DNA of 64,000 nucleotides, from positions 25,484 to 89,483 of the forward strand of contig BGZN01000003.1 in assembly GCA_003864455.1 (NCBI GenBank), in the 5' to 3' direction. A program made the translations under genes and the position numbers. This DNA is from Candidatus Termititenax aidoneus. Its GTDB lineage: Bacteria; Margulisbacteria; Termititenacia; Termititenacales; Termititenacaceae. The notes beneath the pieces were generated by a model, which was not told where the DNA came from, did not search any database, and was given only the letters and a program-made list of their open reading frames with translations. Positions 11,610 to 31,200 of the stretch are shown here, piece by piece. Position 1 is the first letter of the stretch. Each line of letters opens with the position of its first letter.

Positions 11610-12908
11610 ATGAAAAAAATAATTTTAGCGATTTTCACAGTAATGCTGGCGCTGTCCATATTCGGCTGCGGCAAAACGCAGCAGGCGAGCGGTGGCGGTT
11701 CATCGAGCGGAGGAGGAGGTGGCGGTGGAAACACACCGCAGACTTTTTCGATCAGCGGTGAATCAGATTTGTTAAATGGATATGTTTCTGGATTTTCTGT
11801 TATGGCCGCTGATGATTTTTCGGTAACGCTCCATGACCTCTTGACCGGCGCGACGGTGAATGCCAACGTGAAAATAGAGGATGGCAAATATTCTGTTACC
11901 GGTCTGGATGCCGCTAAAGTTTACGAGGTGCGCCTAAGAAAAAATAGCGACGTGCAGAGTAATGTGGCCGCCAAGCCGCGCTTTTCCGATACGGCGACAG
12001 TTAATGTTAGTGAAAATACTACAACTTTTGCGAATAAGATTATAGAAAAGAAAGATGAGATAAAAGACGCGCTGACTGGCGCTAACGCGGCGGCGGGTAA
12101 GGTAAACGAATTGTTCGCTCTGGCCAAAGATAATGAAAGCAAACTCGTTGAATACGCAAGGCAGATAAAAAATTCTAAACAAGACAAGCTCACCGTGCTG
12201 GCCTGGGACACTAAAAACATTGACGGCAGCACAAGCGATTGGAACAAGAATTATACTGTCTTGTTTGACGCTGACCATCCCCTGTCTGACACCGACAACC
12301 GTCTCACATGGAGAGGTATAGGCAAGGCATATAAAGATTGTTTGGTAGTAAAGAACGTCAAAGTGGCTAGGGACAATGACAATCTTTATTTCTTGTGGGA
12401 GCAACAAGGAAATGGATTTTATACTGACGAGGAAAAAAAGGATAATAACAATATTTGGGATAATCGTGGAAAAAATACAGTAGAGTACATGATGGGAATT
12501 TACATTGCCGGCACGGGTTGGGATGCTGAGGACGAGACGCGTCCGCCATCGTATATGGAAACTCCTGTGCTCGCGGAAATGGGGATGAGTAATACAAAAA
12601 TACAAGACGAAGTCCGGTTTAGCGCTCAGATCTGGAGGAAAGAAGATCCGCACCACAACATCGTGATAAACGATAAAATGCAAGGCAAATTGAGCGGCGA
12701 TAAGAAATTTCTGGAAATAGCCGTGTCAATAAATGAAATCCAGGAACATTTGAGAGGCTATTTACTATCAGACTATGATGATGCTTATGTTATTGGCATC
12801 AAGGTTAAAGGTAATTATGAATGGGTTCCGGGGCCCAACGACGGCGAAGGTAGTATGATCGGGGGTAATTATAATTTTATAACCAATATGTTGTTAGTAA
12901 AGTTTTGA
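11610..12908 (+). CDS. Lipoprotein with a Gly/Ser-rich linker, 432 aa, function unknown
   Basis: RBS aaggagaaaag. Signal + lipobox MKKIILAIFTVMLALSIFGC followed by GGGSSSGGGGGGGN. The ORF-track N-terminal extension (11526) lacks an RBS. Confidence 0.65.
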   Translation: MKKIILAIFTVMLALSIFGCGKTQQASGGGSSSGGGGGGGNTPQTFSISGESDLLNGYVSGFSVMAADDFSVTLHDLLTGATVNANVKIEDGKYSVTGLDAAKVYEVRLRKNSDVQSNVAAKPRFSDTATVNVSENTTTFANKIIEKKDEIKDALTGANAAAGKVNELFALAKDNESKLVEYARQIKNSKQDKLTVLAWDTKNIDGSTSDWNKNYTVLFDADHPLSDTDNRLTWRGIGKAYKDCLVVKNVKVARDNDNLYFLWEQQGNGFYTDEEKKDNNNIWDNRGKNTVEYMMGIYIAGTGWDAEDETRPPSYMETPVLAEMGMSNTKIQDEVRFSAQIWRKEDPHHNIVINDKMQGKLSGDKKFLEIAVSINEIQEHLRGYLLSDYDDAYVIGIKVKGNYEWVPGPNDGEGSMIGGNYNFITNMLLVKF

Positions 12909-15929: not shown

Positions 15930-16004
15930 TCCCCGATCGTCTAATTGGTAGGACGACAGATTCTGGCTCTGTTAATCGAGGTTCGACTCCTTGTCGGGGA
16001 ACCA
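15930..16004 (+). tRNA. tRNA-Gln (anticodon CUG), 75 nt including the encoded CCA
   Basis: Hand-folded cloverleaf: acceptor TCCCCGA/TCGGGGA, D-stem GTCT/GGAC, anticodon stem ACAGA/TCTGT with loop TTCTGGC (anticodon CTG), T-stem CGAGG/CCTTG with loop TTCGACT, discriminator A, then CCA. Confidence 0.8.
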
Positions 16005-17555
16005 ATCCACCCTAGTATCCAACCCCGTTGAATTTAGTCTTTGACGATTCACGGAGTCAATCGGCCTTATCTTAATCCGTACTAAAGAGTCTTTGCTGTT
16101 TTCTTGAGGATAGAGCCGTATTTCGTCAATTATATAGCCTAGCAGTTTTTCTTTATCGATAAAACTTAATTCGTCATACATCTCGTAAAATATCCTAAGG
16201 GTGTCTCTTAGGTCATTATCGGTGGCTTTTTCCTGTTCTTTTAAGGCAATCAATTCATCGAAGTTCGAGCTTTCTAGGCCATATTTGGCAATTTCTTGCT
16301 CATACTTGCGGATAAGGTCGGCTAAATCGGGGTCATTTTTCGATAACTTTTGTAACTTATTTTCTACCCCTATTTTTTTGTTTAATATCCCTTGTTTCTG
16401 GTTGCGTAATTCTTGTATTTCTTTGTTCTGCTGCTTTCGTGCGTCAACTAAAACTTTTTCGAAGGCTAGATTATCCTTAAATAAATTCTTTAACTCCTCG
16501 GCTAGATGTTTTTCAATCAATTCGCTGTTAATTCTTATTCTTTTCTTTTTATTATCTTTAATATATGTATGCACATAATAATTGGTGTTGTTTTCCTTGT
16601 TATAGCCCATCTGCTTTTCAGAATCATTGTAAAACAACAAATCACTCAATATTCCCCTAGAAGCAGCAGACCTTCTTAATTCCGGTTTAGTATTGTCATT
16701 AAATATCTCTTGGCACAGGTTAAATACAGACTCGTTGATAATCTGACAAGACGGATTCCAATTAACAATTTTTCCGTCATGTCTGGCTTTACCAATGTAA
16801 TAGGGATTGTTTAGGACATTTTCCACATTATCCCTTTTGAAAGTTCTGTCTTTATTTTTTAAGTTTTGCTTATTCAAAAAATCAGCCACTTTTTTAGCAC
16901 TTTTTAACTCGATATATTTATCAAAAAGTAATTCAACAATAGGCCGTTCATCTTCATTGATTACAAGTTTTTTTCCGTTTTGGTCATATCCAAGGGGGAC
17001 TCGTCCGCCTCTAAATTGTCCTTCCTCAATCATGCGGTTCATACCGGTTTTAGTTCTTTCCGTGATAAGTTCACGCTCATATTCCGCAAAAGTTAAGATG
17101 ATATTCATCATCATTCGTCCTGCTGCTGTAGCAGTAGAAAAATCTTGTGTTATAGAAACAAGCGATATATCTTTGTACTTCAAATAATCGTTTATAAACT
17201 TGTAAAAATCACTAATGCTTCTGGTCAATCTATCAAGTTTATATATGACAATACAATTTATTTTACCTGCTTCAATATCTCTAACCAGTCGCTCATATTC
17301 GGGTCTATCTAAATTGCTCCCTGGCTTCCCTTTTTCGGCATATATTTCAGTCAGCACCCATCGTTGTTTATCGTCTGTGTCGTTGCGTAATGATATATGC
17401 TTTTTACACAGCTCGATCTGATTGTCCACAGAATCATGCTCTTTTAGTTGGCCGTATTTATCTTTGCCTTGTTTTTGGTCGCTAAATCTAGCATAAATTC
17501 CACAGCGTAATATTTTCTGTTCCTCGGTTTGAATAACAGCATTATTATTTTTCAT
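15972..17555 (-). CDS. Large serine recombinase (integrase) of the element; its last 11 codons are encoded by tRNA-Gln sequence
   Basis: N-terminal resolvase catalytic domain (YARFSDQKQ...; IYKLDRLTRS), recombinase domain and a coiled-coil-rich C-terminus; 527 aa. The stop lies at 15972-15974, inside the tRNA. Confidence 0.85.
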   Translation of the reverse strand: MKNNNAVIQTEEQKILRCGIYARFSDQKQGKDKYGQLKEHDSVDNQIELCKKHISLRNDTDDKQRWVLTEIYAEKGKPGSNLDRPEYERLVRDIEAGKINCIVIYKLDRLTRSISDFYKFINDYLKYKDISLVSITQDFSTATAAGRMMMNIILTFAEYERELITERTKTGMNRMIEEGQFRGGRVPLGYDQNGKKLVINEDERPIVELLFDKYIELKSAKKVADFLNKQNLKNKDRTFKRDNVENVLNNPYYIGKARHDGKIVNWNPSCQIINESVFNLCQEIFNDNTKPELRRSAASRGILSDLLFYNDSEKQMGYNKENNTNYYVHTYIKDNKKKRIRINSELIEKHLAEELKNLFKDNLAFEKVLVDARKQQNKEIQELRNQKQGILNKKIGVENKLQKLSKNDPDLADLIRKYEQEIAKYGLESSNFDELIALKEQEKATDNDLRDTLRIFYEMYDELSFIDKEKLLGYIIDEIRLYPQENSKDSLVRIKIRPIDSVNRQRLNSTGLDTRVDWFPDKESNLD

Positions 17556-17648
17556 AATTATAGATACGCTCCTTTATATAAAGATTATTATTTAATCAAA
17601 CTTGGGGCAGAGATGGGTAAAACCCTCTCTGCCAGTTTCACTAAATCT

Positions 17649-18347
17649 TTAGGCTTTCGCTACTAAAGATTCCTGCGGTTCTGCAACCGTTGAAGTTTGT
17701 TCAGCAGTTGCGGTCAAGGTGTTTTGTAAGTCTCTTAATTCTTTAAGAGCTTCCTCGACTTTGGCAATAGCTTCGCTTAATTGGTTTGGGTTTTTGATAT
17801 TCTTTACAACAATATCTTTTTCCCATCTGTTAAGCGAACGGCTGTTCCTGTTTTTGCAATATTTTTTATATATTGCTTCCAGACCTAGGCTGTCCACTTC
17901 AGCCTTTTTGTCGGGATTCTTAGATAGAAAATCACCCACCTTAGCATATTTCGAGACCAGTGCCTCGGACTTGCTTATTGCGGTGGAGACTTGGGCTTGA
18001 GTAATATCTTTATTATCAAGCACGGTCAAAACCGCTTTAGCAAATTCCGAGGGCATCAGATTCTTTCTCTGACAGTTCTCGGTAAGTTGGGTTAAGATGG
18101 TCTCCACACCATCTTTAGTTTCTGTAACAATCACAGGTACAGTTTCTAAATTGGCTAACTTAGCCGCCTCAAACCGCCTATGACCACAGATAACTTTATA
18201 GCCATCCCCCTCTTTTCTGGCACAGATGGGCTGCATAACCCCATAGGATTGGATGCTTGCTTTCAAGCTGTCCAATTTCCCCATGTCGGCACTCCGGATG
18301 TTCGTGCCGTTTGTTAATTGCTCCATAACCATATTGATCACTGCCAT
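17649..18347 (-). CDS. ParB-like nuclease domain protein
   Basis: ParB/Srx motif region MQPICARKEGDGYKVICGHRRFEAAKLANL. Confidence 0.65.
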   Translation of the reverse strand: MAVINMVMEQLTNGTNIRSADMGKLDSLKASIQSYGVMQPICARKEGDGYKVICGHRRFEAAKLANLETVPVIVTETKDGVETILTQLTENCQRKNLMPSEFAKAVLTVLDNKDITQAQVSTAISKSEALVSKYAKVGDFLSKNPDKKAEVDSLGLEAIYKKYCKNRNSRSLNRWEKDIVVKNIKNPNQLSEAIAKVEEALKELRDLQNTLTATAEQTSTVAEPQESLVAKA

Positions 18348-18671
18348 AATTCTTTACCTTTCTGTACAATCATGTACAATTTTATTTGCCAATTATCTGA
18401 CTTTATATCCAGAGTATATTTTTAAGAGATTGGGCTTATTACTCCACCTGCCTTTCAAGCATTTGTGCAGAAAAGTAATTTGCCGTACTAGACCTTGGCG
18501 AGCCTAGCTTAGTTAAATGTTTTCTTGCACAACAAATTTTGAAAGGGGCGTTTTACTTCCGGCTCAAGCTGTGGTTGGTTGTATGGCCGTTATCATTTAT
18601 TTCGCCCTGTTGTTAAACCACAGGTTTGGCAATACTATCAAACTCGCTATTTCTTGTCAACAGATATTTTT

Positions 18672-19358
18672 TCAATTCAACAAACCCTTAATTTTTTTCT
18701 GTGCCGTACCTGCACTTCTAATAAAATAATTTGTATCGCTTTTCATTTTGTTTTTTAGTTCTGCTAAATTTTCTTTCTCTGCTCCTCGGCTTAATCCGCA
18801 TTGTGCCAGTAAGTAACTTGCCGTAAGTGTGTTTGTCAGATTGTCATTTGTTTGTGGTTCTAAATTTTTTGCCAGAAAAACAATCGCTTTTCTAAAATAC
18901 TCCTCGGTATCAAGTCTGTTATCACGGGGCAGTTCTTTATCGGTTTTTTCAGAGCCTTTTTGTAACAGGTTATCAGTTTCATAGAGTTTATCGGGATAGA
19001 TATAATCGTCTTGCAAACCGGCAAAGTCAGCGTAGATCGATGTGTTGCACAAAGGGAATGAATGATAATAAGCCAGCCTGCCACCGGAGTTACAATTACG
19101 GAAGTAGGTCAGCAAAGCCCCTGTACTGCCTGTCATTATTTTACCGCCCATCTCTTTGATTTGCATGTAAGAGCCAAAGAATACATTGTTTTTTATGTTG
19201 TGCTGTCGGCAGTAGATACTCAATAAGGCTTGGTTTAATACGCTGTAATTCTGTTCACTGGCCATATTGCGGTATAGAAATCCTTGATTGAGAAAATCCA
19301 AACCGTTATTTTCTACATATCCTAAAACATAGTCATTTATAATATTTTCAACACGCAT
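18672..19358 (-). CDS. ArdC-N-like (ssDNA-binding, DUF1738-like) protein
   Basis: Architecture and motifs resemble the N-terminal domain of the neighbouring ArdC-like protein (…YRNMASEQNYSVLNQALL…FFGSYMQIKEMGGKI). A weak call. Confidence 0.4.
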   Translation of the reverse strand: MRVENIINDYVLGYVENNGLDFLNQGFLYRNMASEQNYSVLNQALLSIYCRQHNIKNNVFFGSYMQIKEMGGKIMTGSTGALLTYFRNCNSGGRLAYYHSFPLCNTSIYADFAGLQDDYIYPDKLYETDNLLQKGSEKTDKELPRDNRLDTEEYFRKAIVFLAKNLEPQTNDNLTNTLTASYLLAQCGLSRGAEKENLAELKNKMKSDTNYFIRSAGTAQKKIKGLLN

Positions 19359-19596
19359 AAGATTACCCCTTTTTATTTGATGTAAAAGTTTCGTAACAAA
19401 ACTATTGAAAAATTAGCCCTCGCTTAAAGACACCACCCACCTTATTTTTGAATACGGTTTTTTCTAAAATGTGGAGCGTTATTTTTAAGAAAGGACTAAT
19501 TATTTATTCACTAAGATTTAGCGTTTGATTTTTTCTTGTAAGATTTTCCGCAGAAAATCCATCTCTTTTTGGCTTAGATTAGACTTGAGCAATAAT

Positions 19597-20484
19597 CTAT
19601 CTTTGTTCATGGCACACTTCCTTTCCTGCACCCTCATTTAGCTTTCGTCCAAAAATATAATCTGCCGCCTTGCTTGCCTTACTGCTAGCAGACACAAGGG
19701 CTTCTTTTTGATTTTTTAGAAAGTTAGCCCAGTTATTGATATAGGCTTGTGTATTGGTTTTGTTTATAGGCAAGCCTAACTCTTGCATAATAAAACTGCT
19801 AGCCATTTCCGCTATCAATTCCTCTTGGCTGTATGAATTTCTATCTTTATTAAGGCTTTCCAGAGGTCTATTTAATCTTTTTGCATTTCCCGTCCAGTGA
19901 GACAATTCGTGAAAAGTAACACCGTAGTATTCGTTAGTGTTTATAAATGTTTCGGGTTTTTGTATATAAATAGTGTCCTCACTTGGTATATAGTAATTGC
20001 CGGAAACAGATACAATAAGATTAGGGTTGTTTGCTTTTATAACTCCCTCGGCTTTTTCGATAGGGTTAAAATTATTGTGCTGTTTTTCGGGTAACTTCAT
20101 ATTGGTTTGCTCTATGTTAAAAACATTGTAATAGCGTAATATGGGTATCTCTTTTACTTCTTTTAGACCGTTTTTATTTGTTACTTCTTTTTCCGTGATT
20201 GTCCAGTAGATAACCGGCACGGATTTTTCACCGCAATTTACGCTACCGCCTGCGTTTTTAATCTGTAAGAAAGTACCCCAGATATTATGTTTATAGCTTT
20301 TTTTGTTAGCGATATAAGTTAAATATAAATAATTTATACCTCTATAAGTTTTATTAGATTGTAGATTTTTAGGCAGCTCCGCAGCACAGGGGTTTTGCCA
20401 CGGTATAACACCTAACTCCAATCCTTTAATCAGTTCCTCTACTATTGCCTGTTGCTTCTCTTGTGCGATTGTCATGGTCAGCAC
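19597..20484 (-). CDS. ArdC-like antirestriction protein (ssDNA-binding N-domain + zincin-like metalloprotease C-domain)
   Basis: N-terminal …IPWQNP…YRGINYLYL…TFLQIKNAGGSV. C-terminal HExxH zincin motif FHELSHWTGN. Confidence 0.7.
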   Translation of the reverse strand: MLTMTIAQEKQQAIVEELIKGLELGVIPWQNPCAAELPKNLQSNKTYRGINYLYLTYIANKKSYKHNIWGTFLQIKNAGGSVNCGEKSVPVIYWTITEKEVTNKNGLKEVKEIPILRYYNVFNIEQTNMKLPEKQHNNFNPIEKAEGVIKANNPNLIVSVSGNYYIPSEDTIYIQKPETFINTNEYYGVTFHELSHWTGNAKRLNRPLESLNKDRNSYSQEELIAEMASSFIMQELGLPINKTNTQAYINNWANFLKNQKEALVSASSKASKAADYIFGRKLNEGAGKEVCHEQR

Positions 20485-20586
20485 CGCCTTTCATTGGTTA
20501 GTTATCTGCCAACGACAGAGGACAACTCCGAAGTGCGGTGCAAATATTGAAAGGCGGTTATTGAAGACTATGCGGAAGTTTAGTAA

Positions 20587-20826
20587 CTAAAGATTAGCGG
20601 TGTGGTTACTTTCATCTTTAATATTTATATTATAAGTATGATGGTCTTTAGTTTTTACGGTTACTCGCCATAATGTTGCGTCTTTTAATTTCTTTCGCCA
20701 CCAGATTTTTTCAACAATTTCTTTGTTTCCGACAGTTTCAACTATCAGATTTTCTATGTTGTTTCGTAACTTTATGTTTGTTAATTCATTGTCTATATCT
20801 ATTATTTTTCCCATTTCACCAGCCAT
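20587..20826 (-). CDS. Hypothetical protein, 79 aa
   Basis: ORF with an upstream RBS inside the AT-rich element. No recognised domain. Confidence 0.4.
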   Translation of the reverse strand: MAGEMGKIIDIDNELTNIKLRNNIENLIVETVGNKEIVEKIWWRKKLKDATLWRVTVKTKDHHTYNINIKDESNHTANL

Positions 20827-20870
20827 ATATACGCTCCTAAAATATTTTTACCTTCTTTAGAGACTAAAGA

Positions 20871-21293
20871 TTAGTTATTTATTTTTTTTGTTTCTCTGAC
20901 TTTTTCTAATTTTCTTTTAGCGGCATACGCTTGCTTCAAAAATGAGACCGCTTCTTTGTTGGTCGGCTCTAGTTTGACTACTTCCGTAAAATCTTTTATT
21001 GCCTTATCAAAGTTTTTTGTTTGAGCATACGCACACCCTCGAAAGAGATAAGCCGGTGCAACGCTTTTGCCGAATTTAATCGCCTTAGTAAAATCCGCTA
21101 TGGCCTTGCTCCAATTCTTTAGCTCAAAATAAGCAAGCCCACGGCCAAAATATGCCGTTGAGTGATCCGGCTTTAATTTAATGTATTCAGAAAAACTTTC
21201 GATTGCCTTATCCCAGTTTTCTTTTTCAAGGTACATCTTCCCGGTACTTAGGTACGCTTTTTTAGCTTGCCCTTTTGTCGATTTTTTAATCAT
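20871..21293 (-). CDS. TPR-repeat protein, 140 aa
   Basis: Three TPR-like units (W-LG-Y-A-F-P pattern: AYFGRGLAYFELKNWSKAIADFTKAIKF…). Confidence 0.6.
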   Translation of the reverse strand: MIKKSTKGQAKKAYLSTGKMYLEKENWDKAIESFSEYIKLKPDHSTAYFGRGLAYFELKNWSKAIADFTKAIKFGKSVAPAYLFRGCAYAQTKNFDKAIKDFTEVVKLEPTNKEAVSFLKQAYAAKRKLEKVRETKKINN

Positions 21294-21697
21294 CGATATG
21301 CTTCAGGGTCATATCGTATTGGCTCAGTTTCAAAACCTTTAATGATTTCCATTTGCATATTCTCATTTATTTTTACAAGTCCCCATTTACCATTTTTCAT
21401 TAAGGAAAATTTTCCGGTTGTTTGGTATTCACTAAACCAAATGTTATCATACTCAAAATTAACAATAATTTTTCCTTGTTTACTGATAACTCCCCACTTA
21501 CCGTTATATATTGCAGGAAATAAACCATTGTGATACTCATAAATTCTGACTTTGTCAAAAATACGTTCGCTAATTTGCTTTCCATATTCATCAAAAACTT
21601 TCCATTTAGTACTACTTATTCCCACGGCAGTTAGCCCTTTGTATTCTTGAATTTGAGTTCCCTTATCGTACCTTATATTGAATTTTTCACTACTCAT
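21290..21697 (-). CDS. WG-repeat protein, 135 aa
   Basis: Repeated (N/K)GKWG(V/L)(I/V) motifs (YNGKWGVISKQGKIIV; KNGKWGLVKINEN). Confidence 0.6.
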   Translation of the reverse strand: MSSEKFNIRYDKGTQIQEYKGLTAVGISSTKWKVFDEYGKQISERIFDKVRIYEYHNGLFPAIYNGKWGVISKQGKIIVNFEYDNIWFSEYQTTGKFSLMKNGKWGLVKINENMQMEIIKGFETEPIRYDPEAYR

Positions 21698-21720
21698 ACT
21701 TCACTTCTCCCATAATTTCT

Positions 21721-21948
21721 TTAAAGATTGTCCAAATTCTCAATTTCAATTTTGCCTTTGTGTATAGCTTTATGGCATGGCTGACATACGGAAACAATAT
21801 TGTTTGGATGGGATAGGCCGCCTAAGCCACGAGGAATATAATGATGCCCTGCACAGTTACCTTGTCCGCAAATTTCACATTTGTTTCCGGCTAATATTCT
21901 GCCTTCTCTTTGTGCTTTTATATCAATATAAGTTCTTTTTTTTGACAT
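21721..21948 (-). CDS. HNH endonuclease, 75 aa
   Basis: CEICGQGNCAGHHYIPRGLGGLSHPNNIVSVCQPCHKAIH is a classic HNH (CxxC…HH…N…CxxCH). Confidence 0.7.
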   Translation of the reverse strand: MSKKRTYIDIKAQREGRILAGNKCEICGQGNCAGHHYIPRGLGGLSHPNNIVSVCQPCHKAIHKGKIEIENLDNL

Positions 21949-21966
21949 AAATACTCTTGCACCTAA

Positions 21967-22188
21967 TCAAAATGAAGATAACGTCACATCGTCATTAGTA
22001 ATTTCTACCTCTCTATCGCCATAAGTAATAATACATTCAGTATCGTCAATGCTTACCATTCCATCCTTTTCAAAAATTATTTTAAAAATTTCCACCTTGC
22101 CGTTGGAATGTTTAACGACAATTTTATCATCATAGACATTGAGAACCTCATCACCTTTCTTTAATATTTCCAAGGATATTTTTTTCAT
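21967..22188 (-). CDS. Hypothetical protein, 73 aa
   Basis: ORF in the element's minus-strand gene string. No recognised domain. Confidence 0.35.
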   Translation of the reverse strand: MKKISLEILKKGDEVLNVYDDKIVVKHSNGKVEIFKIIFEKDGMVSIDDTECIITYGDREVEITNDDVTLSSF

Positions 22189-22206
22189 GTTGTCTCCTTT
22201 AAGTTA

Positions 22207-22419
22207 TTATTTCCCTTGCCCTGGCAAGAGATTGCGAAAAATCTGTTCGATTACTTTGCCGCCATACACACCTGTTCTGACTCTCATATCGGATTTGTGT
22301 GTTTTTTTATAGTCTTTTAGTACTTTTTTGACTTTTGGCATCACACGCTTAACATCTTTTGTTTTACCCATTATATTAACTGTGGCCGCACTTACCTCAT
22401 CATTGCTCATACAACTCAT
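22207..22419 (-). CDS. Hypothetical basic protein, 70 aa
   Basis: ORF in the element. Lys-rich. No recognised domain. Confidence 0.35.
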   Translation of the reverse strand: MSCMSNDEVSAATVNIMGKTKDVKRVMPKVKKVLKDYKKTHKSDMRVRTGVYGGKVIEQIFRNLLPGQGK

Positions 22420-22581
22420 CCTCTCTTTATGTTGTTTTAGTCAACAGCTCTGCCAGTTAAACTACAAACTCAAAACCATTATCGTTTTATACAGTTTAGT
22501 TAGAATTATACATTTGTATAGCAATAAAAACAATATCCATTCAAAGATAAAATTAAATGTCTCTTATTTAAGGAGGCATTT

Positions 22582-22971
22582 ATGGAAAATAAAACCACAG
22601 TAGAAAAAAGGTTAAAAACGCTGATCTCAACCAAGCTTCAAGAAATCAGAGAAGCGGCAGGCGGTCAATCGCTTGAGAAAATGGCCGAACAATTAAATCT
22701 AAATTATACTGTCCTGTTTCATATTTATTCGGGCAAATATTTGCCCAGATTGACAACCCTTACCCAAATTTTAGATTTTTACAATCTGCCGATAGAGATA
22801 TTTTTCAAAGATTTAACAAACAAAGATAAGGCCACACTTGCCAAAAATGCAAGTCATGCCACGCTAATTAGCGATTTTGATAAACTCGACAAACCAATGC
22901 AGGCCTCTATCCTAAAAATAGTCCGCAAATTAAATCTAAAAGAGAAAAAGCACAGGTATAGCGGTAAATAA
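22582..22971 (+). CDS. XRE-family HTH regulator of the element
   Basis: HTH-like LQEIREAAGGQSLEKMAEQLNLNYTVLFHIYSGKYLP. RBS aaggagg. It is the only plus-strand gene in the element's interior. Confidence 0.6.
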   Translation: MENKTTVEKRLKTLISTKLQEIREAAGGQSLEKMAEQLNLNYTVLFHIYSGKYLPRLTTLTQILDFYNLPIEIFFKDLTNKDKATLAKNASHATLISDFDKLDKPMQASILKIVRKLNLKEKKHRYSGK

Positions 22972-23047
22972 TTCTAAAAAATCTGTAACGGTTAAGTATT
23001 AAAGTCGAAACAGCATAAGTTTAGTGACTAAAGATTAGCCGTTTTTT

Positions 23048-24004
23048 CTATTTCTTTGACTTTCTTTTTTCGGCTTTTGCCTGTTCTAAATATTCATGTG
23101 CCTGTTTGTTATTGGGATTTAGCTCCACTGTTTTAGCAAAATCTTCAATGGCTTTGTCAAAATCGCCTTTACTGGCATACGCACAACCCCGATAAAAATG
23201 TGCCTCATCATAATCCGGTTCTAAGTTTATTGCCTTTGTATAACTTCTTATTGCCTTAATCCAATCACCTTTTTGAAAATAAGCATATCCTCGATATGAA
23301 TATGCTTGGATAGCAAGTCCTTGTCTCTCACGACTAGGATCAGATTTAATTGCCTCGGTATAATCCTCTATGGCCTTATCCCAATTTTCCTGAGCAGCAT
23401 AGGCACGTCCTCTATGCAGATATGTCAATTCATCTCCCGAATATAATTCAAGTGCCTTGTCGTAGTCTTTAATAGCCTTGTCAATATTTCCCTTTTCAAA
23501 ATACGCAATACCTCGATTGCAATAAACCATGTAATCATCATGCGTATAATTTTTATTCATTTTAATTCTTTTAGTGTAATCCTTTATGGCGTTATCATAA
23601 TCTTCCATATCACTATACGCATTTCCTCGCATGAGATATGCAATTTCGTCATTGCTGTCTAGTTTTGTTGCTTTGGTATAGTCCTCTATGGCTTGATTAA
23701 GGTTGCCTTTTTTGGCATATGCTACGCCTCTATTACAATATGCTATTCCATAATTTTTATCCAGCTTAATTGCTTCTGTATAACTTTTAATCGCATTGTC
23801 CCAATCATTTTCTTCACTATAAGCACACCCTTTATTATAAAACTCTACCGCTTGTTCGTCAGTCGATATACTCCTATCCTTAATGCCTAGTCTTTTTTTG
23901 AGATTCTTATAATACCTTTCTGGATTTTCGCAATAATCCCTATAATTAGGATCATCAAATTCTTTGTATTTATCTATAATTTCTTTTAATTCCGATTCGC
24001 TCAT
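23048..24004 (-). CDS. TPR-repeat protein (about 8 TPR units), ~318 aa
   Basis: Repeated AYxxRGxAYxxxGxxDKAIxDYTxAIKL units. Start chosen at MSESELKE (24004) rather than the ORF-track 24064. Confidence 0.65.
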   Translation of the reverse strand: MSESELKEIIDKYKEFDDPNYRDYCENPERYYKNLKKRLGIKDRSISTDEQAVEFYNKGCAYSEENDWDNAIKSYTEAIKLDKNYGIAYCNRGVAYAKKGNLNQAIEDYTKATKLDSNDEIAYLMRGNAYSDMEDYDNAIKDYTKRIKMNKNYTHDDYMVYCNRGIAYFEKGNIDKAIKDYDKALELYSGDELTYLHRGRAYAAQENWDKAIEDYTEAIKSDPSRERQGLAIQAYSYRGYAYFQKGDWIKAIRSYTKAINLEPDYDEAHFYRGCAYASKGDFDKAIEDFAKTVELNPNNKQAHEYLEQAKAEKRKSKK

Positions 24005-24005
24005 A

Positions 24006-24431
24006 TTAGTTATTCCCCTTAGGTTTACGCTGCCAAAAAGCAAGCCGAGGCAAAAACAGTACAAATCTAAGCAACCAAGATTCTGGCCAAGGATAATTAG
24101 AAAATGGCTTTTTGTTTTTTATTCTTTTTTCTTCATCGTCTTGGCTATATATTTTGGTAATGGACAGAAAAAACATATTAGGAGTAAGTTTTCTTATTAA
24201 CCCATTAGAGGCAGAAACTGCACCGCAACAGAAATCAAGGAACGGTTTTTTATCTGCTGCGTCTAATTCTTTAGTGGATAATATCAGCCAACCTTGAATC
24301 TTTAATATTGTGCCTGCTTGATGCATAGAATCTGCATCTGTTTTTTGCGGTGTATATGTAATGTCAGACAAGCTGTCCCTTATTTGTCCCTCATCTAATA
24401 ACTCCGACCCAGTTTTTTTATTTTTCGCCAT
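24006..24431 (-). CDS. Hypothetical protein, 141 aa
   Basis: ORF in the element. No recognised domain. Confidence 0.35.
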   Translation of the reverse strand: MAKNKKTGSELLDEGQIRDSLSDITYTPQKTDADSMHQAGTILKIQGWLILSTKELDAADKKPFLDFCCGAVSASNGLIRKLTPNMFFLSITKIYSQDDEEKRIKNKKPFSNYPWPESWLLRFVLFLPRLAFWQRKPKGNN

Positions 24432-24661
24432 ATATGCTCCTAAAAATTAAGTATATCATATCCTATTGCTTAACAATAATATATATTATTTGTTCTGCAA
24501 TAAACTAAAATGCCAGTATCAAAATCAGGCAAAATTTTGTGTTTGGACTGCTAAAATATTTATGACAAATTACCATACGGAATTTCGTCACGAAACTTTA
24601 TTATTCAAGGCAGACTCATTGTATATTCTTTGATAATAGTTACCCCCATTTACAGATTATT

Positions 24662-25294
24662 TTAGTTAAACCAGTCTAATTCTGTTTTGCCTTTGTAACC
24701 CTTTTCCCAGATAAACCATGCGTAACAAATGGTGCTATTGGTAGGGAAAGTAACAAAATCACCATTTCTGGCACAATTCAGACGTGAGCTTGAGACCCAG
24801 ATTTTCTTGGGCGGATTTTCAGTAAAAATCTTTTTGCGTGTTTTGCTTTCCAGATACCTAATGGGCAAAAACAACGCTAGCTTGCGGTTACAATCAAGAA
24901 TTTCTAAGGCTTTCTTCATAAATTCATTAGCATATTTATACGGTGGATTGGTAATAATATCGCCATGCCATTTCGATATGTAATCCTGTTTGTCTGTAGG
25001 ACTTGCTAAAAAATCATAATGCTTGCCGTACCCGTAATTATATTTATCAGTAGCCAACTTTAGTATGCCCTGCTTTTTTAACACTTTCGCCATGTGTCCT
25101 TGACCACAGGCACATTCCCATACGTCAGAGAAGTTATCTAGTTCTAAAAGTAATTCGGTTGCCTTTGGCTCTGTGGCGTAAAAGTCATGCATCTCACGGT
25201 CATGCAAGGCAAGATTCCGTGAGCCAATGCTCATATGTACGCTGTGTTTATTGCCTGTCCAATCTTTTGGCTTTTGATTTTTCTTGCCAGTCAT
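24662..25294 (-). CDS. Orphan N6-adenine DNA methyltransferase, 210 aa
   Basis: SAM-binding motif I (DVWECACGQGHM) followed by the catalytic motif IV DIITNPPY. No adjacent restriction endonuclease gene. Confidence 0.75.
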   Translation of the reverse strand: MTGKKNQKPKDWTGNKHSVHMSIGSRNLALHDREMHDFYATEPKATELLLELDNFSDVWECACGQGHMAKVLKKQGILKLATDKYNYGYGKHYDFLASPTDKQDYISKWHGDIITNPPYKYANEFMKKALEILDCNRKLALFLPIRYLESKTRKKIFTENPPKKIWVSSSRLNCARNGDFVTFPTNSTICYAWFIWEKGYKGKTELDWFN

Positions 25295-25335
25295 CTATAC
25301 TTAATAAAAGTTTCGCAACTAAACTTCTTTATTAT

Positions 25336-26574
25336 TCAAGGCGGCCTAATGGCATACTCTTTGAGGTCAACCCCTATCATAGAGCTTGTATAATCTATCC
25401 AGTCTATCAATCCGGCAAAAGCAGACATAACAATTTCATATTTATTTATCAACTCATGCCTGAGTTTTGTATAAAGATTATCAGGCAAAAAATCGGCTAC
25501 TTTATTAAACAGGGCATATATGCGTTTTCTTTCCCTGCACTTAGCCGAAGTGTCATTTTTATCGGAAAACCTATCATTAAGATACTGACTTATATTTAGT
25601 GTGTTAATATCTAAAAGCAAGTTTATTTCTTTCCATGATAAATGTTTACTTAACCAATCCCAAGTAAAAGTATTATTCCACAGACTAGGGTAGGGTTTGG
25701 CCTTGACTGGCAAAAAGTCTTTTAATTCTTTAGTGTAAACTTTCGTAAATAAACTTTGTAAGTTCCGTTTGGAGAATAAACTTTCTGCTGTAAACTTTGA
25801 GCCGTGAATTTTGCCAAAACTCTTTATCCGTTTACTGCCTTTGATTCTCAACTCTGCCCTTAATAGATTTATATCGCCAATATCAAAGTCCTGTTTTTCT
25901 CTTAATTCTTTGGCTTTATCATAAACACATAACAAATAACCCCCTTTTTTACTTCTAATATATAAAGAGCCTTTGAAATACCGGATTTGATTAGCATGAT
26001 GTTTTAAGTTTTCCTCAAAGAATACATAATAATCAGGCGGTCGGTTAGGAAGCTCTACATTAAGGGCTATATCTATTCTTGATATTTTTATATCGCTTAA
26101 ATCGACAACAACCCCGTTCTCTGCTAGAAAATCCTTAAACATTTCCCAAAATTTCCGGTATTGCTCATTAGTAGGCAGGGCTATATTATTACTGTTAAAA
26201 CATTTAGGGATATTTACAGTAATAAAAAGATTGCCGCTCCCTTGGCTTAAATTAAAGTGTCCGTCATTAAGCCAAAAATCCTTACACCGCAAAAAACCAG
26301 TACGCCCATCGTCATATAAAAGAGGGATAACATTATTTTTATCTGCCGTATTGCATTTATACTTTGTTAAGCAGGACTGTTTGATCCTGTACTTCTCGTG
26401 CGGCAGATAAAAAACTACGCTATCTGTGCCTACTACATAATCAAGGTTGGCTAAATTTATAAAGTTAGACTGTTGCCAGGCAAGGTTATCAAGATCAGTA
26501 AACATAATAAAATCATCATCAAATAAATCTGCAATCAAAGTCGCCTTATTATTAGCCAACACTGCTATCCTCAA
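25336..26574 (-). CDS. Rep_trans-like rolling-circle replication initiator / relaxase-like nickase, 412 aa
   Basis: Size and motifs (…LLCVYDKAKELREK… candidate catalytic Tyr in a YDK context) resemble the Rep_trans family found on ICE/IME and RCR plasmids. A moderate call. Confidence 0.45.
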   Translation of the reverse strand: MRIAVLANNKATLIADLFDDDFIMFTDLDNLAWQQSNFINLANLDYVVGTDSVVFYLPHEKYRIKQSCLTKYKCNTADKNNVIPLLYDDGRTGFLRCKDFWLNDGHFNLSQGSGNLFITVNIPKCFNSNNIALPTNEQYRKFWEMFKDFLAENGVVVDLSDIKISRIDIALNVELPNRPPDYYVFFEENLKHHANQIRYFKGSLYIRSKKGGYLLCVYDKAKELREKQDFDIGDINLLRAELRIKGSKRIKSFGKIHGSKFTAESLFSKRNLQSLFTKVYTKELKDFLPVKAKPYPSLWNNTFTWDWLSKHLSWKEINLLLDINTLNISQYLNDRFSDKNDTSAKCRERKRIYALFNKVADFLPDNLYTKLRHELINKYEIVMSAFAGLIDWIDYTSSMIGVDLKEYAIRPP

Positions 26575-26611
26575 TTTTCTTTTATAAATTGTCTGTTATG
26601 CGTTCTTGCCG

Positions 26612-26761
26612 TCATTGTTTTTTGTCCTCATTATTATTTGCCATACTTAATCTCATAGCCCGTCTGCGTTTGGCTTCTTTTATTACATTGCGAGCAATAA
26701 TTTCATTTACGGCCGCTGTCCTTTCCTCTAGGGTTGCATTCATTATCCTTAATAGAAACAT
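26612..26761 (-). CDS. Small basic protein, 49 aa (MFLLRIMNATLEERTAAVNEIIARNVIKEAKRRRAMRLSMANNNEDKKQ); candidate RHH/Xis-like regulator; below the ORF-track cutoff
   Basis: RBS GGGAGGTG 8 nt before the ATG. Immediately upstream of the Rep_trans-like gene, and divergent from the XRE gene across a palindromic operator. Confidence 0.4.
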   Translation of the reverse strand: MFLLRIMNATLEERTAAVNEIIARNVIKEAKRRRAMRLSMANNNEDKKQ

Positions 26762-26782
26762 TACAGAATCACCTCCCGTATT

Positions 26783-26812
26783 AAGCGTATGCTAGAATTA
26801 TAGCATACGCTT
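26783..26812. promoter_or_regulatory. Perfect 12-bp inverted repeat AAGCGTATGCTA-gaatta-TAGCATACGCTT in the divergent promoter region
   Basis: Read directly. Lies between the small RHH-like gene (minus) and the XRE-family gene (plus). Confidence 0.6.
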
Positions 26813-26838
26813 GAAAAAGGTCAACGGCTAGTATATAA

Positions 26839-27420
26839 TTGTGTTCTATGGCGATAAAACAGATAAACCCCGAACAGGCTCAACATTTGAAAAACCTGTT
26901 AAAACAAAAACAGATTAGCCTTGAAAAAATGGGTAAGGCTTTAGGTGTTAGCTTTCAGCTTGTTCATCAATACACTACAGGCCGGTGCAATCCATCGCCA
27001 GAAACAATGGCGGAAATGGCAAAGGTCTTAAGTGTTCCTCTTTGTTATATGTATATTGATTGCACGCAAAAAGCCTTAGAAGTTATTAGCAATTATTTTC
27101 AACAGCATGGCTTTTTCGTCAAAAAAGAGGTAGCAAAAACCTATTCTTGCGACCTGCTTTGCTTAAGCCCCATGCAAAACATTATCATAGCGGCAAATGT
27201 TAAAAAAACTTCGACAAAGAAATTTTCGGACTCAGCATTAAATATTGATTTTATAGAGCAATCTCTTAGAAAGACATACAATATAAAAAACTGTGTTTTT
27301 CTAAAGGTTGAAATAACTCCCGAAAAAGTACACATTAACTATGATAAGAAGTTAGAACATTTGCCCAGTTTACCAAAGTTACTTAAAGCTCTCGACAGTT
27401 TGTCGATTGTCTGGCCTTAG
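26839..27420 (+). CDS. XRE-family HTH regulator with a C-terminal extension, 193 aa
   Basis: HTH-like LKQKQISLEKMGKALGVSFQLVHQYTTGRCNPSPETMAEMAKVL. Confidence 0.55.
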   Translation: MCSMAIKQINPEQAQHLKNLLKQKQISLEKMGKALGVSFQLVHQYTTGRCNPSPETMAEMAKVLSVPLCYMYIDCTQKALEVISNYFQQHGFFVKKEVAKTYSCDLLCLSPMQNIIIAANVKKTSTKKFSDSALNIDFIEQSLRKTYNIKNCVFLKVEITPEKVHINYDKKLEHLPSLPKLLKALDSLSIVWP

Positions 27421-27573
27421 ATTTCTAACTACTAATTTTTTTCTATGACCATAAGCCCACATATTATAATGTTTAATACACAACCCTTTTCCGTGGTGCG
27501 GCTCATTACAACCTAATATAGTACAAGTCTTAATATATGGGTTTGGGAATAGGCCTACCCAAATAACGCTCAT
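27379..27573 (-). CDS. Cys/His-rich small ORF, 64 aa, at the right end of the element; in frame with the recombinase across the inferred attP
   Basis: CTILGCNEPHHGKGLCIKHY motif. The minus-strand frame is open from the element boundary (27618) to this ATG and matches the recombinase frame relative to the 10-bp core. Confidence 0.4.
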   Translation of the reverse strand: MSVIWVGLFPNPYIKTCTILGCNEPHHGKGLCIKHYNMWAYGHRKKLVVRNLRPDNRQTVESFK

Positions 27574-27631
27574 GGTATAATTTGTCCTTGCTCCATTCTT
27601 TGTATTGTAGGGTGGAATGGGGAACCAAAGT

Positions 27632-27730
27632 TACTAAAAGTCCTCCTTGCACGTCGCTACGCTTGTTGGTCTCACTTAACTTCGGGCTTACGCCCTTGTT
27701 AAGCTCGACGCGGGTAACCAAAGTGTTATA
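27632..27730 (-). repeat. Single diverged copy of the 104-bp repeat unit also found in tandem at 37032-37289
   Basis: Minus-strand read …GTCGAGCTTAACAAG[GGCGTAAGCCCG]AAGTTAAGTGAGACCAACAAGCGTAGCGACGTG… versus repeat unit …GTCGAGCTTAACAAG[CGAAGCG]AAGTTAAGCGAGACCCACAAGCACGCGAAGCGGGCGACGTG…. Confidence 0.6.
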
Positions 27731-27899
27731 CTTTAGGCTATGCGAAAGACGAAGCCTAAAAAACTCAAAGCGCGCGACGAAATTTTGCTGCGTCATATCA
27801 CTACCGGCAAGATCGGCTGCGGACCGCACAAAAATAAAATAAAATACAGCCGCCAACGCAGCAAACTCGAAACTAAAAATACCGCCGTGGAGGAACAAA

Positions 27900-28217
27900 A
27901 TGCCAAAACTTAAATTTACGCAGAACAGCAAAACTTACGAAGCGTGCGGCACGGATTTTCAAATACGCGTTTGGCAGGAATTGCGCAAGATCCCCAGAGG
28001 GCAAGTTATTACTTACGCGGAATTGGCGCGGCGCGCAGGCCGCCCGCGCTCCGCGCGGGCCGCGGCGAACGCCTGCGGCGCCAATCCGCTGCCGGTCATA
28101 GTTCCCTGTCACCGCGTTATCCGTGGCGACGGAGGTTTGGGCGGATACTCAGGAGTCGGCGGCGTGCGGAGAAAACGCGAATTGCTGCGCAAAGAGGGTT
28201 ATATTTTACTGGCTTAA
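27900..28217 (+). CDS. MGMT-family protein (O6-alkylguanine-DNA alkyltransferase DNA-binding domain only, YbaZ-like), 105 aa
   Basis: Active-site motif PCHRVI and an HTH (TYAELARRAG) are present. The N-terminal Ada/Ogt domain is absent. Confidence 0.8.
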   Translation: MPKLKFTQNSKTYEACGTDFQIRVWQELRKIPRGQVITYAELARRAGRPRSARAAANACGANPLPVIVPCHRVIRGDGGLGGYSGVGGVRRKRELLRKEGYILLA

Positions 28218-31200
28218 TTTTTTCTCGAGGCGTTTGATGTAATGTTCAGACCGGATTTCACAAAATATTTGCAAGGCTTTATCTAATATTTTTATTCTAT
28301 CGAAATAATTTTCATCGCGGCCTGTGGAATTGAACAACGAAGCGTAGTGGTACATAGATTTGCCCAGTTCATATTTACGGCCGATGAGTTTGCAGTGTTT
28401 TATAGACTGCAAAAATAACTTTTTAGCTTTGTCTTTTTTGTTGACCAGAACATTGTATCTCGCCGCCGCACGCAAAGCTCCGCCGTAATGTGTCGGCCAG
28501 TTTTTAGTCTCCCGTAAAGCTCTTTGGCTGGCTGCCTGAATTTGCCGCAGGAAATTTTCGCTGTCCGGAATTTTAGCCGTGTCGTTTTTATATTTTCGAT
28601 AATAAGCGATCAGGATTTCCGCATGATCATTCAAAATATTGATCGAATACTCTTTATTGAAATTCGCGCCTTCCGCGTTGTAATGCTCGATCGCTTCGGT
28701 GATGTAGCCTTTGGCTTTTTCCAGCTCGCCTTTTTCTAGGTAAAGCATGGACAGCTCGGTCAGCACATTGCAAAGCATTTGCTGTTCATCGCGTTTGTAC
28801 AATTCACGGGCATAACCTAAAGCGGTCAGGCCGGATTTTTCCGCTTGTTCCAGACTGCCTGTTTCAGCCCGAAGACTCAATTGCATCAAATTAGCGGAAG
28901 CCAGGCCGTAAGTGTCATTAGCCCTGGTTACGCGCACAAAGTATTTTTTGTTTAATTCATCGGCTGCGGGGTATTTGGCCAGCGCGTAATACACATAAGA
29001 CATGGAGGTTTGCACGCGGGCGATATGCTCGTTGTCGCCGGCTATGGAAAAATATTTAAGGCTTTTTTCCAGATAATGCTGGGCGCGGCGAAAATCCGCT
29101 TTTAGCCAGAGATAATTATAGGCCGAAAACTGATAAAGCTGCCCTAGACCAAAAGCGTTTTTGTTTTTCTCATTTTTTCCATACAGAATCTCAGCTTTTT
29201 CAAAGTATTTTTGCGCGGAATTAAACTTGCCGAGATTGAGCATGATAAGGCCTAGGCCGCAGTAACTTAAAGCTTCTTCACTGGATTTAGGCAGAAAATG
29301 TCTGGCGATGCCGTTCATTTTCAAAATACAATAGGTTAGTTTTAACCGATCGGTCGTGGAATAATTCCAGGCCAGCGTATTATAGAACCAGATTTTTTGC
29401 GCCGCGCGTTCCTTATCTGCCCGGGATTGTTCTGACGGAAAACTGGCCATAACGTCCAGCAACTGCAGGGCTAAATAGCCTTTCGTAACTCTTTCGGGAA
29501 AACTTTCCTCCAAAATTTTTAAACCATTCAGGCCGTAATATTCACAACTGCTGTAATTGGCTTGTTTATAATACGCGGCGCATAAAAAACTGTAAGCTCT
29601 GGCTTTATCCGGCGGTGAATTTAAAAAAGGCATAATTTTGTTGAGCAGATTTTCCGCTGACGCGACCTGTCCGACCACCAAATACAATTCGGCTAATTTT
29701 AAACCGGACTGGATATGTCCTTCTGAACCTTCCTGCGTGCTGGCGACTACAGACTCCAGCACATTGATCGCTTCTGCATAGGCAAAACCTTGAGCATGCT
29801 TCAGCGCGGCAGTATAACCGTGTTTCCAGGATTGATCCAGGATTACGGCGGATTGACTGTTTTGTGCGTGATAATAAAGGTCTTCGGCCTGCTCAGTTTT
29901 CTCTTCTGTGGTCAAACGGCCGTCCAGAAAATTTAAAGCGGCGGCATGTACAACGCTGCGGATTTTTTCCGGCAGATCATTCAAAAGCACCTGCCGGATA
30001 TAGTCATGGACAAAAACGATTTCATTTTGGTCGTTCAAGCGCACCAACTGAGCCTCCACAGCGTTGCGGATCTTAGTGGCGTTTAATTTCGGACATAGCC
30101 TGCTAAGGTCTTCAACAGTCAGGCTTTGCGCGCCGACCGCCGCGGCATAAATTAGCAAAGCTTTAGTCTCATTATCTAAAACATTCAGTTTGTCATGTAT
30201 CGAATCTTTGGTCAGCGGCGCAATAGAGATTCTTTCAGCCCGTTCTTCCGAGAAAGTCCATTGATTGTTTTTTAAGTAAAGAACCGGCGGGTCTATGGCG
30301 TTCTTTTCTGTGTTGGCGCTTTTTAGTTGTTTGACAATCTCCAGCGCATAGAAAGGATTGCCGCCGCTTTTTTTCTGCACCCAGTTGGCCAGGGCGGAAA
30401 TAGAGCTGTTCCTTTGCTGCAGCTCATTGACGATCATTTTTTCCGTGTCCCGTAAATTAAAATTTTGCAGAGCCAATTCTTTGGCGCTGGCCAGTAAATT
30501 TTCCTTGAGAAAATCAAAATTGACATGCAGCAAAGGCTGGATTTCTTTGTAGGTGCAGACCAGCAGCAGATAAGAACTGGCTAACTGTTCGCGGGATAAT
30601 TTTTCCAAAACTTCCTTGGAATATGAGTCGAGCCATTGTAAATCATTCAGCACGATGACCATGCCCTGTTCAGCCGCGGCCAGACAGAGCAAAAACCGGA
30701 TAAATATATTGCAGAATTTAAGCTGTTCGCTGGAAGAGGTGTCCATTTTGACTGAAAAAGACAAATTTTCGTCATTAAGGTTTAGATCGAGCAGTTCGCC
30801 TAATTGCGGAGCAAAACTCTGAATTTCTTTTTCATAATCTATGCCGTAGTTTTCCATCTGTTTTTTTAGCTCGGCTGAAATCGCTGCTTTTTTGTCGTGA
30901 GGATAACTTCTAAAACGTTTGATATACGTGATCAGTATTTGTTTGAAAGCCAGATAAGGCTGTTGCCGGTCGCCTAGTTCGAATCCGCCTTCCATAAACG
31001 GCTTGAGATTTGCTTTGGCAATAGGTTTCAACTGGCCGGCCAGAGCGGTTTTGCCAATGCCGGATTCGCCGCTGATTATATATACGTTGCCTTGTTTTTG
31101 CAGCGCGCTGTGGAAAGCGTTTTTTAATTGTTTTACTTCAGCAAGGCGTCCGACAAAATTTTCTCCGGAAGGAAAAGCGCTAAGGTTAGACGAGACACCC

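Follow-up and report, generated by a model that had tools for sequence, protein, structure and literature searches.

Candidatus Termititenax aidoneus, an uncultured termite-gut symbiont, carries next to a glutamine tRNA gene an 11.6-kb integrative element whose predicted integrase, a large serine recombinase (LSR), is encoded by a gene that runs through its own attachment site. In the 64-kb stretch of DNA analyzed here (the window, whose positions serve as coordinates throughout), the LSR reading frame ends inside the tRNA gene. In the reconstructed circular form of the element, the same frame would continue into a small Cys/His-rich open reading frame (ORF), with one C-terminal tail exchanged for another. 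As judged from the reconstructed attP, this C-terminal swap is structurally real and resembles the IntP/IntX pair of phage Mx8. On balance, tight gene packing at attP probably produced the fusion as a tolerated by-product, with a neutral effect at the protein level, and a regulatory or functional role for it is improbable. The features on which this reading depends are the following.

16006..27618: body of the integrative element, 11.6 kb, ~35% GC compared with ~50% in the flanks, genes mostly on the minus strand
15930..16004, plus strand: intact tRNA-Gln(CTG) with encoded CCA (ARAGORN; Rfam RF00005, 58.6 bits)
15996..16005: attL core GGGGAACCAA, encoding W518-F519-P520 of the recombinase on the minus strand
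27619..27628: attR core GGGGAACCAA
16000..16023: predicted P' half-site of attP (AACCAATCCACCCTAGTATCCAAC), also the codons for ...LDTRVDWF
27599..27622: predicted P half-site of attP (TTTGTATTGTAGGGTGGAATGGGG), which repeats the P' half-site in inverted orientation
15972..17555, minus strand: LSR, 527 aa when integrated (Pfam, PHROG, NCBIfam, alignment and AlphaFold2)
15972..15995, minus strand: integrated-state tail DKESNLD and stop codon, antisense to the T-arm and acceptor stem of the tRNA
27574..27618, minus strand: 45-nt linker (IPPYNTKNGARTNYT) that separates the core from the ATG of the small ORF
27379..27573, minus strand: Cys/His ORF NO1_0350, 64 aa, with its own ATG and annotated by NCBI as a separate protein

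The number of core repeats, the steps in base composition and the absence of the island from a related locus (L002, described below) indicate that the element itself is real and beyond chance. The core GGGGAACCAA occurs exactly twice in 64 kb, compared with an expectation of 0.05, and exact identity between the left and right ends, as between attP and attB, is confined to these 10 bp. A composition scan of the window places a drop in GC content from 51% to 35% at 16001 and a renewed rise at ~27500-27700. The tRNA-Gln(CTG) is the one tRNA found in the window by ARAGORN and Rfam, and its last 9 nt lie within the att core. The locus displays the features of a tRNA-targeting element: the tRNA at one end is intact, its 3' end is duplicated at the other, and the integrase gene adjoins the tRNA. 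A Pfam scan detected no Phage_integrase domain, and hence no tyrosine integrase, among the island ORFs scanned. The LSR is the sole candidate integrase because the island encodes no tyrosine integrase. The mobility of the element is inferred.

For a serine integrase dimer to act, the core must be short and attP symmetric. Reconstruction of attP by joining 27618, the core and 16006 brings TTTGTATTGTAGGGTGGAATGGGG directly before AACCAATCCACCCTAGTATCCAAC, with GGGTGGAATGGGGAACCAATCCACCC as the junction and CTTGTCGGGGAACCAAAGTTACTAAAAG as the predicted empty attB. The reconstructed site has dyad symmetry at 17/24 positions about a single axis, GGGG/AACCAA, that falls within the core. When the P' side was joined to random window segments, the mean score was 9.4 (sd 1.26), and a fraction of 1e-4 reached 17; the symmetry scores of attL, attR and attB are just 8-10. 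Because the axis falls within the core, the reconstructed attP is very probably right, with a predicted crossover dinucleotide GA at 15999-16000. Both core copies are identical, and a crossover anywhere inside them would therefore give one and the same junction and frame.

In the integrated state, the LSR ORF ends in ...RVDWFPDKESNLD and a stop codon, with its final 33 nt (10 residues and the stop) lying antisense within tRNA-Gln. The translation and the tRNA call bear out the original prediction, in which the recombinase ORF was said to cross attL into the tRNA with its last 11 codons. Across attP the frame is uninterrupted and reads ...RVDWFP-IPPYNTKNGARTNYT-MSVIWVGLFPNPYIKTCTILGCNEPHHGKGLCIKHYNMWAYGHRKK...ESFK followed by a stop codon, for a total of 599 aa, with the small ORF starting at MSVIWVG. 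The proposed continuation into the 64-aa ORF, with 15 open codons between, is present in the reconstructed junction. Residues 1-520 are common to both forms, which differ in a tail of 7 aa when integrated and 79 aa when excised. The excised form is longer, as had been proposed, by a net 72 aa (79 versus 7) rather than by about 80 aa.

The open in-frame join is, by our estimate, no better than chance and statistically unremarkable. All three frames are open over the 45-nt linker, of which the first ~21 nt (7 codons) form the P half-site, or P arm, of attP; in the other two frames, stop codons appear 18 and 31 codons after the start of the core. The probability of 15 stop-free codons is 0.40-0.42, as estimated from island sequence and from shuffles of the linker. 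Multiplied by 1/3 for the frame, this stop-free probability yields a chance of ~0.13 for an open in-frame join.

The ORF is assigned to the LSRs because it contains the Pfam Resolvase domain (PF00239, aa 20-180, E=4.9e-30) and Recombinase domain (PF07508, aa 201-287, E=1.5e-13). The nucleophilic serine is present, and S25 and R23 are invariant or almost so in a 58-sequence alignment. The protein is 100% identical to the 'DNA-invertase hin' of Candidatus Termititenax aidoneus. By profile coverage, the enzyme is complete without either tail, and its conserved part is over by ~aa 500. The phage-integrase profile phrog_95 covers aa 8-499, while the XisF and CcrA models of NCBIfam are aligned to 460/465 by residue 479 and to 430/442 by residue 474, respectively.

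The zinc ribbon of LSRs sits between the recombinase domain and the coiled coil. Alignment with LSRs that bear PF13408 places the corresponding region at aa ~300-345, the canonical internal position, and none of the four Cys is retained. The same holds for the nearest homologues (P0002, P0007 and P0013), and Pfam detected no match to the four-Cys zinc ribbon PF13408 in the LSR. The AlphaFold2 (AF2) model, built from the 58-sequence alignment, has a mean pLDDT of 73, with values above 90 over the Recombinase domain. The catalytic and recombinase domains are confidently modeled, followed by a beta-rich unit resembling a zinc-ribbon domain at 307-343 and a helical (coiled-coil) region beyond it; pLDDT falls below 50 for residues 463-527, where the alignment is thin. 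The tail restores no missing domain because the LSR is complete before residue 500 with an internal zinc-ribbon region. The original prediction had cast the extension as the C-terminal zinc-ribbon domain of LSRs. This identification fails, as the region in question is already internal and Cys-less, and the extension would sit at the extreme C-terminus, beyond the helical region, and matches a finger of HNH endonucleases and not PF13408.

The 64-aa ORF contains one CxxxGC-x7-GxCxxHY zinc-finger unit at residues 17-36, spaced C-x4-C-x9-C-x2-H with conserved GC, G and HY, in which C17, C22, C32 and H35 occupy near-invariant columns of a 150-protein alignment. The profile phrog_5351, representing phage HNH endonucleases, matches with E=1.6e-7, and ORF residues 14-48 align with positions 6-40 of 171, which correspond to the N-terminal finger. 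Neither Pfam nor NCBIfam provides a match to the ORF, a PDB sequence search returned no significant match, and an AF2 model of the ORF alone has a pLDDT of 48. A phmmer search over 1.84 billion representatives yielded 2950 matches, mostly proteins with 3-13 tandem copies of CxxxGC-x7-GxCxxHYxR, the first copy often at the extreme N-terminus. Ten motif proteins scanned with Pfam harbor HNH_3 or HNH, Zf_WRKY19 (PF24906; some of them), TnpB or Ros/MucR domains. The 64-aa ORF has a single unit, with no tandem copies and no accompanying nuclease or effector domain. Because this unit matches only 6-40 of the 171 profile positions, the ORF is probably the truncated N-terminal remnant of an HNH-endonuclease-type gene. 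The exhaustive phmmer search found no orthologue, and a word-indexed search returned just the ORF itself.

The two protein families do not meet in the sequences compared: none of the best 150 motif matches (of 2950) is an LSR, and the motif is present in 0/120 LSR homologues. The proposal of a state-dependent switch of the integrase C-terminus thus holds for the existence of alternative C-termini, while a functional switch is unproven, given a chance of ~0.13 for the join and no LSR with the motif. The 64-aa ORF was also considered as a recombination directionality factor (RDF). This candidate was rejected for lack of support and because an integrase-RDF fusion would favor excision, which is the wrong direction for the circle (compare PMC5737554).

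Four related Margulisbacteria loci were retrieved through the tsf gene that precedes the tRNA. In L004, a termite-gut metagenome-assembled genome (JAIRZV010000069.1), the tsf protein is 95% identical and the flanking DNA ~87-93% identical, and the same attL, GGGGAACCAATCCACCCT, is present at the same tRNA-Gln. An LSR pseudogene at 12451-13460 of L004 has ~70% nucleotide identity, lacks the N-terminus and contains several frameshifts and stops. After correction of a 1-nt deletion, its tail reads APIGVKNRKILDSPDFDIRVDWFPDKESNLD and a stop codon, and the first 14 nt of the P' half-site are identical in this relic. The original prediction had regarded homologues whose recombinase ends before the att site as evidence against it; the L004 relic also reads across the core and so does not count against it. 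Because of this corrected reading, the extension across the core into the tRNA is ancestral to both copies. The remainder of the L004 island differs and includes an 824-aa ORF and a homologue of the helix-turn-helix (HTH) gene at 20134-20679.

The island is absent from two further loci. L002, with flanks ~92% identical, has ~930 bp of unrelated DNA between tRNA-Gln and the homologue of 27733-27919, and L003 (Ca. T. persephonae) has 2.2 kb of unrelated DNA from tRNA-Gln to the homologue of 27733-28199. The spacer after the tRNA is different in every genome, and L002 and L003 are not base-precise empty sites. At 10866-11060 of L003, ~95 nt after tRNA-Gln, there is a second copy of the tRNA 3' end (ACTCCTTGTCGGGGAACCA), a partial tRNA, then GGGGAACCAAACCACCC; AACCACCCC after this second 3' end resembles the P' arm of the LSR element, and a ~55-nt segment is repeated at ~12100-12230. 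The second partial tRNA 3' end in L003 points to tRNA-Gln as a recurrent insertion hot spot.

No intact relative of the element was found in the collections searched, which comprise proteins, viral contigs, metagenomes, and phage and plasmid records. Among 5.8 billion proteins, the only close relative of the LSR or of the fused protein is itself, and the next-best matches share ~35% identity in an alignment that spans the N-terminal 57% of the 599-aa query. A query with the last 278 aa of the LSR gave no match at E<=0.001 in a search that also missed the identical protein, and this negative is weak evidence. Viral contigs contain no relative by protein or att pattern, five exact 18-mer matches in JGI metagenomes are all unrelated, and phage and plasmid records reach <=34% identity. 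The distant LSRs belong to a subfamily with a different C-terminus, which makes C-terminal alignment with them uninformative; three of these distant homologues are part of DUF3489-DUF2924-LSR operons that have no tRNA close by.

The DNA itself displays the ORFs, the repeat, the open frame and the domains, and the mechanism that would connect them is as follows. The LSR would insert the 11.6-kb element, which probably replicates by a rolling circle, into the last nucleotides of tRNA-Gln(CTG). Its gene appears to be packed so closely against the element end that attP falls within the non-conserved 3' tail, with the P' half-site and core doubling as codons 512-520. Strand exchange at GA would swap everything after Pro520. 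The 79-residue tail encoded by the circle would consist of the P half-site, a short spacer and the 64-aa ORF. In the circular form, transcripts initiated at the promoter that precedes the replication initiator gene (Rep) would pass through the gene array, the LSR and attP into the small ORF, while in the integrated state the LSR gene would end inside the convergently transcribed tRNA. A 599-aa protein, or an independent product of the small ORF, would come only from the circle because no promoter-like site precedes the small ORF when integrated. We infer that the fusion is neutral, and the attP sequence on which it depends is strongly indicated by its symmetry.

Several observations weigh against a neutral by-product. 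The circular form is a reconstruction, and no intact relative in which conservation or loss of the fusion could be judged was found in the collections searched. The zinc-finger unit is promiscuous, being fused to HNH nucleases, TnpB and Ros/MucR, and a functional fusion to a recombinase is therefore conceivable. The small ORF has no predicted promoter when integrated, which would fit a product made only by the circle, and the Shine-Dalgarno (SD)-like sequence before its ATG is spaced less favorably than in other island genes.

The small ORF may instead be an independent gene whose expression, rather than its fusion to the LSR, depends on circularization. In the circle it would lie directly downstream of the minus-strand array, and integration would cut off that transcription. 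Its own ATG, the SD-like AAGGA (weak, and ~10 nt before the ATG, compared with 6-8 nt in other island genes) and its separate NCBI annotation as NO1_0350 agree with this explanation. A promoter scan predicted no sigma-70-like promoter upstream of the 64-aa ORF in the integrated state, that is, between the ORF and the host flank, and a strong promoter on the same strand lies upstream of Rep. However, no stop codon separates the ORF from the LSR, such that ribosomes translating the recombinase would run through and initiation at its own ATG would compete with the fusion. The ORF also looks truncated and overlaps the convergent HTH gene by 42 nt. Taken together, an independent gene is rather unlikely.

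It is similarly unlikely that the element has become a fixed relic and lost the ability to excise, in which case the protein of the excised form would never be made. In favor of this, the L004 relative at the same site has decayed into a pseudogene, the host is a symbiont that has not been cultured, and the circle is a reconstruction. Against such a relic, the LSR, Rep and both att sites are intact here, and the core copies are identical.

Functional isoforms that depend on the integration state are distinctly unlikely. Under this explanation the circle would produce a 599-aa enzyme for integration and the integrated element a 527-aa form for excision, with the C-terminal zinc finger adding DNA binding or altering synapsis or directionality. 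The open frame exists, the finger is of a modular DNA-binding type that occurs in fusion with many DNA enzymes, and no promoter-like site serves the small ORF in the integrated element; a precedent is offered by Mx8, in which integration changes the 3' end of int and the properties of its product (PMC6070905). Such isoforms are disfavored by the chance of ~0.13 with all three linker frames open, and by a small ORF that has its own ATG and looks like the truncated N-terminus of an HNH endonuclease. Also against them, the motif is present in 0/120 LSR homologues, and none of the best 150 motif proteins is an LSR. The more specific proposal that the zinc-finger-bearing 599-aa circle form of a tRNA-targeting element biases integration versus excision at the protein level, independently of an RDF, is very doubtful.

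The right end of the element is bracketed to 27573-27651 because a dispersed host repeat starts at 27651. This short repeat (27651-27684, in the host flank) also occurs at ~37099-37226 and at 2472-2505 of L004, and a hairpin of -19 kcal/mol predicted for 27646-27715 includes it. A second repeat lies near the same end.

27372..27388, plus strand: internal copy ACCAAAGTTACTTAAAG, repeating the right half of the core and the host B' flank
27624..27640, plus strand: right half of the core and host B' flank ACCAAAGTTACTAAAAG, partner of the internal copy

This 17-nt direct repeat matches at 16/17 positions, has only these two copies in the window, and places the internal copy 252 bp inside the element. 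Its alignment score is 29, compared with a null mean of 17 and maximum of 21. The two copies flank the Cys/His ORF together with the P arm, and the ORF has its stop codon inside the internal copy, which may be the scar of an earlier rearrangement that truncated the small ORF. Cores of 5 bp are normal for LSRs. It is most improbable that the true attR is internal at 27372-27376 (a 5-bp core ACCAA followed by the B'-like AGTTACTTAAAG), with 27389-27618 an older insertion remnant and an excised recombinase that would end in ...TRVDW without fusion: the internal 17-mer fits a core/B' junction far above chance, but an attP built from 27372 has no dyad symmetry (<=9/24, the random level, versus 17/24 for the end at 27619), the complete 10-bp repeat is at 27619, and GC content stays at the island level to ~27600. 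The end at 27372 was rejected for lack of attP symmetry, and 27619-27628 is retained as attR.

The remaining genes of the island mostly form a long minus-strand array that begins with Rep and ends with the LSR. Those with assigned positions are listed below.

25336..26574, minus strand: rolling-circle-type replication initiator (weak Pfam matches to Rep_trans / Phage_CRI)
24662-25294, in the minus-strand array: methyltransferase-like ORF
21721-21948, in the minus-strand array: HNH protein of 75 aa
26839..27420, plus strand: HTH_3 (XRE/RstR-like) repressor-type gene (Pfam, NCBIfam), with a likely start at ATG 26848

The methyltransferase-like ORF is followed in the array by two TPR proteins, a WG-repeat protein and the HNH protein, then by two ArdC-like proteins (one with a zincin peptidase domain), a ParB_N protein and finally the LSR. 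The TPR genes have repeated DNA in common (families D1-D4, within 20576-21293 and 23017-24064), and a 26-nt sequence, AAGTTTAGTRACTAAAGATTAGC, is found 92% identical at 20576-20601 and 23017-23042, just beyond their 3' ends. The HTH gene is divergent from Rep, and its 3' end is convergent with the Cys/His ORF with an overlap of 42 nt. The promoter scan identified two near-consensus promoter-like sites back to back at 26797-26839, between Rep and the HTH gene, each matching at 11/12 positions; the strong minus-strand site upstream of Rep occupies 26824-26797. ATG 26848 of the HTH gene is just 9 nt past the -10 hexamer, and this proximity points to a leaderless mRNA for the repressor, of the kind found in phage immunity switches. 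Just to the right of the island, a 1015-aa STAND-type NTPase (AAA_16 and TPR) is encoded at 28206-31253 on the minus strand. L002 and L003 lack this gene, with 27919 and 31306 almost contiguous there, and the region is a second variable insertion, possibly related to defense.

Genome engineering draws its main recombinase tools from the serine integrases, whose directionality is attributed to the coiled coil and a separate RDF. An enzyme whose tail is swapped by its own reaction would represent a simple natural test of whether C-terminal appendages bias direction. The significance of this case is limited by a singleton element in an uncultured symbiont and by a fusion that is statistically unremarkable.

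An LSR element in a tRNA gene is uncommon. The Islander paper states that no serine integrases are known to specify tRNA genes (PMC4383910). The large TIGER/Islander survey of Mageeney et al. placed 14/297 serine-integrase elements at t(m)RNA genes, treated this kind of targeting as rare and not yet proven, and asked for experimental confirmation (PMC7192596). Prochlorococcus islands mostly adjoin tRNA genes, and 27/937 tycheposons and cryptic elements carry an LSR (bioRxiv 10.1101/2020.12.28.424599). The present element resembles both sets in that an island bearing an LSR abuts a tRNA gene that stays intact. Those sets consist of bulk predictions, whereas here a symmetric attP and a 10-bp core tie the tRNA site to the LSR. 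With its short core, symmetric attP and lack of a tyrosine integrase, this element is an exceptionally clear candidate for a serine integrase that targets a tRNA gene. The canonical LSRs (phiC31, Bxb1, A118/LI, SPbeta SprA, XisF and CcrA/B) have the same architecture of Resolvase, Recombinase, zinc-ribbon-like and helical regions, a short symmetric attP and short identity to attB. The present enzyme differs from them in a Cys-less zinc-ribbon domain, a tRNA-gene target, an attP that overlaps its own coding sequence, and nearest homologues that are only ~35% identical.

No description of a serine integrase gene that spans its own attP was found in the literature searched, and the nearest parallels come from other kinds of systems. 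Retroregulation by lambda sib acts through mRNA decay, and BPs-type mycobacteriophages truncate their repressor upon integration, which removes a degradation tag. In these systems, as here, the sequence downstream of a gene adjoining attP changes with the integration state and alters the product or its stability, but neither involves the C-terminus of a serine integrase. The integrases of Mx8 and of SSV, both tyrosine recombinases, extend across attP (Islander paper, PMC4383910). The fusellovirus SSV shares an integrase gene that lies across attP (PMC4383910). Integration splits the SSV gene in two, while here just the residues after Pro520 would be exchanged. The closest precedent is myxophage Mx8, whose target is also a tRNA gene region (trnD). 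The attP of Mx8 is located within the coding part of int, and the gene acquires through integration a new 3' end that alters the properties of the enzyme (PMC6070905, citing Tojo 1996 and Magrini 1999). As with IntP and IntX, the attP core lies within the integrase ORF (here at codons 518-520), and the C-termini of the integrated and free forms would differ. The Mx8 enzyme is a tyrosine recombinase in which the behavior of the altered form has been shown experimentally, whereas the present case is a serine recombinase, known from its sequence, in which a non-conserved tail would be swapped.

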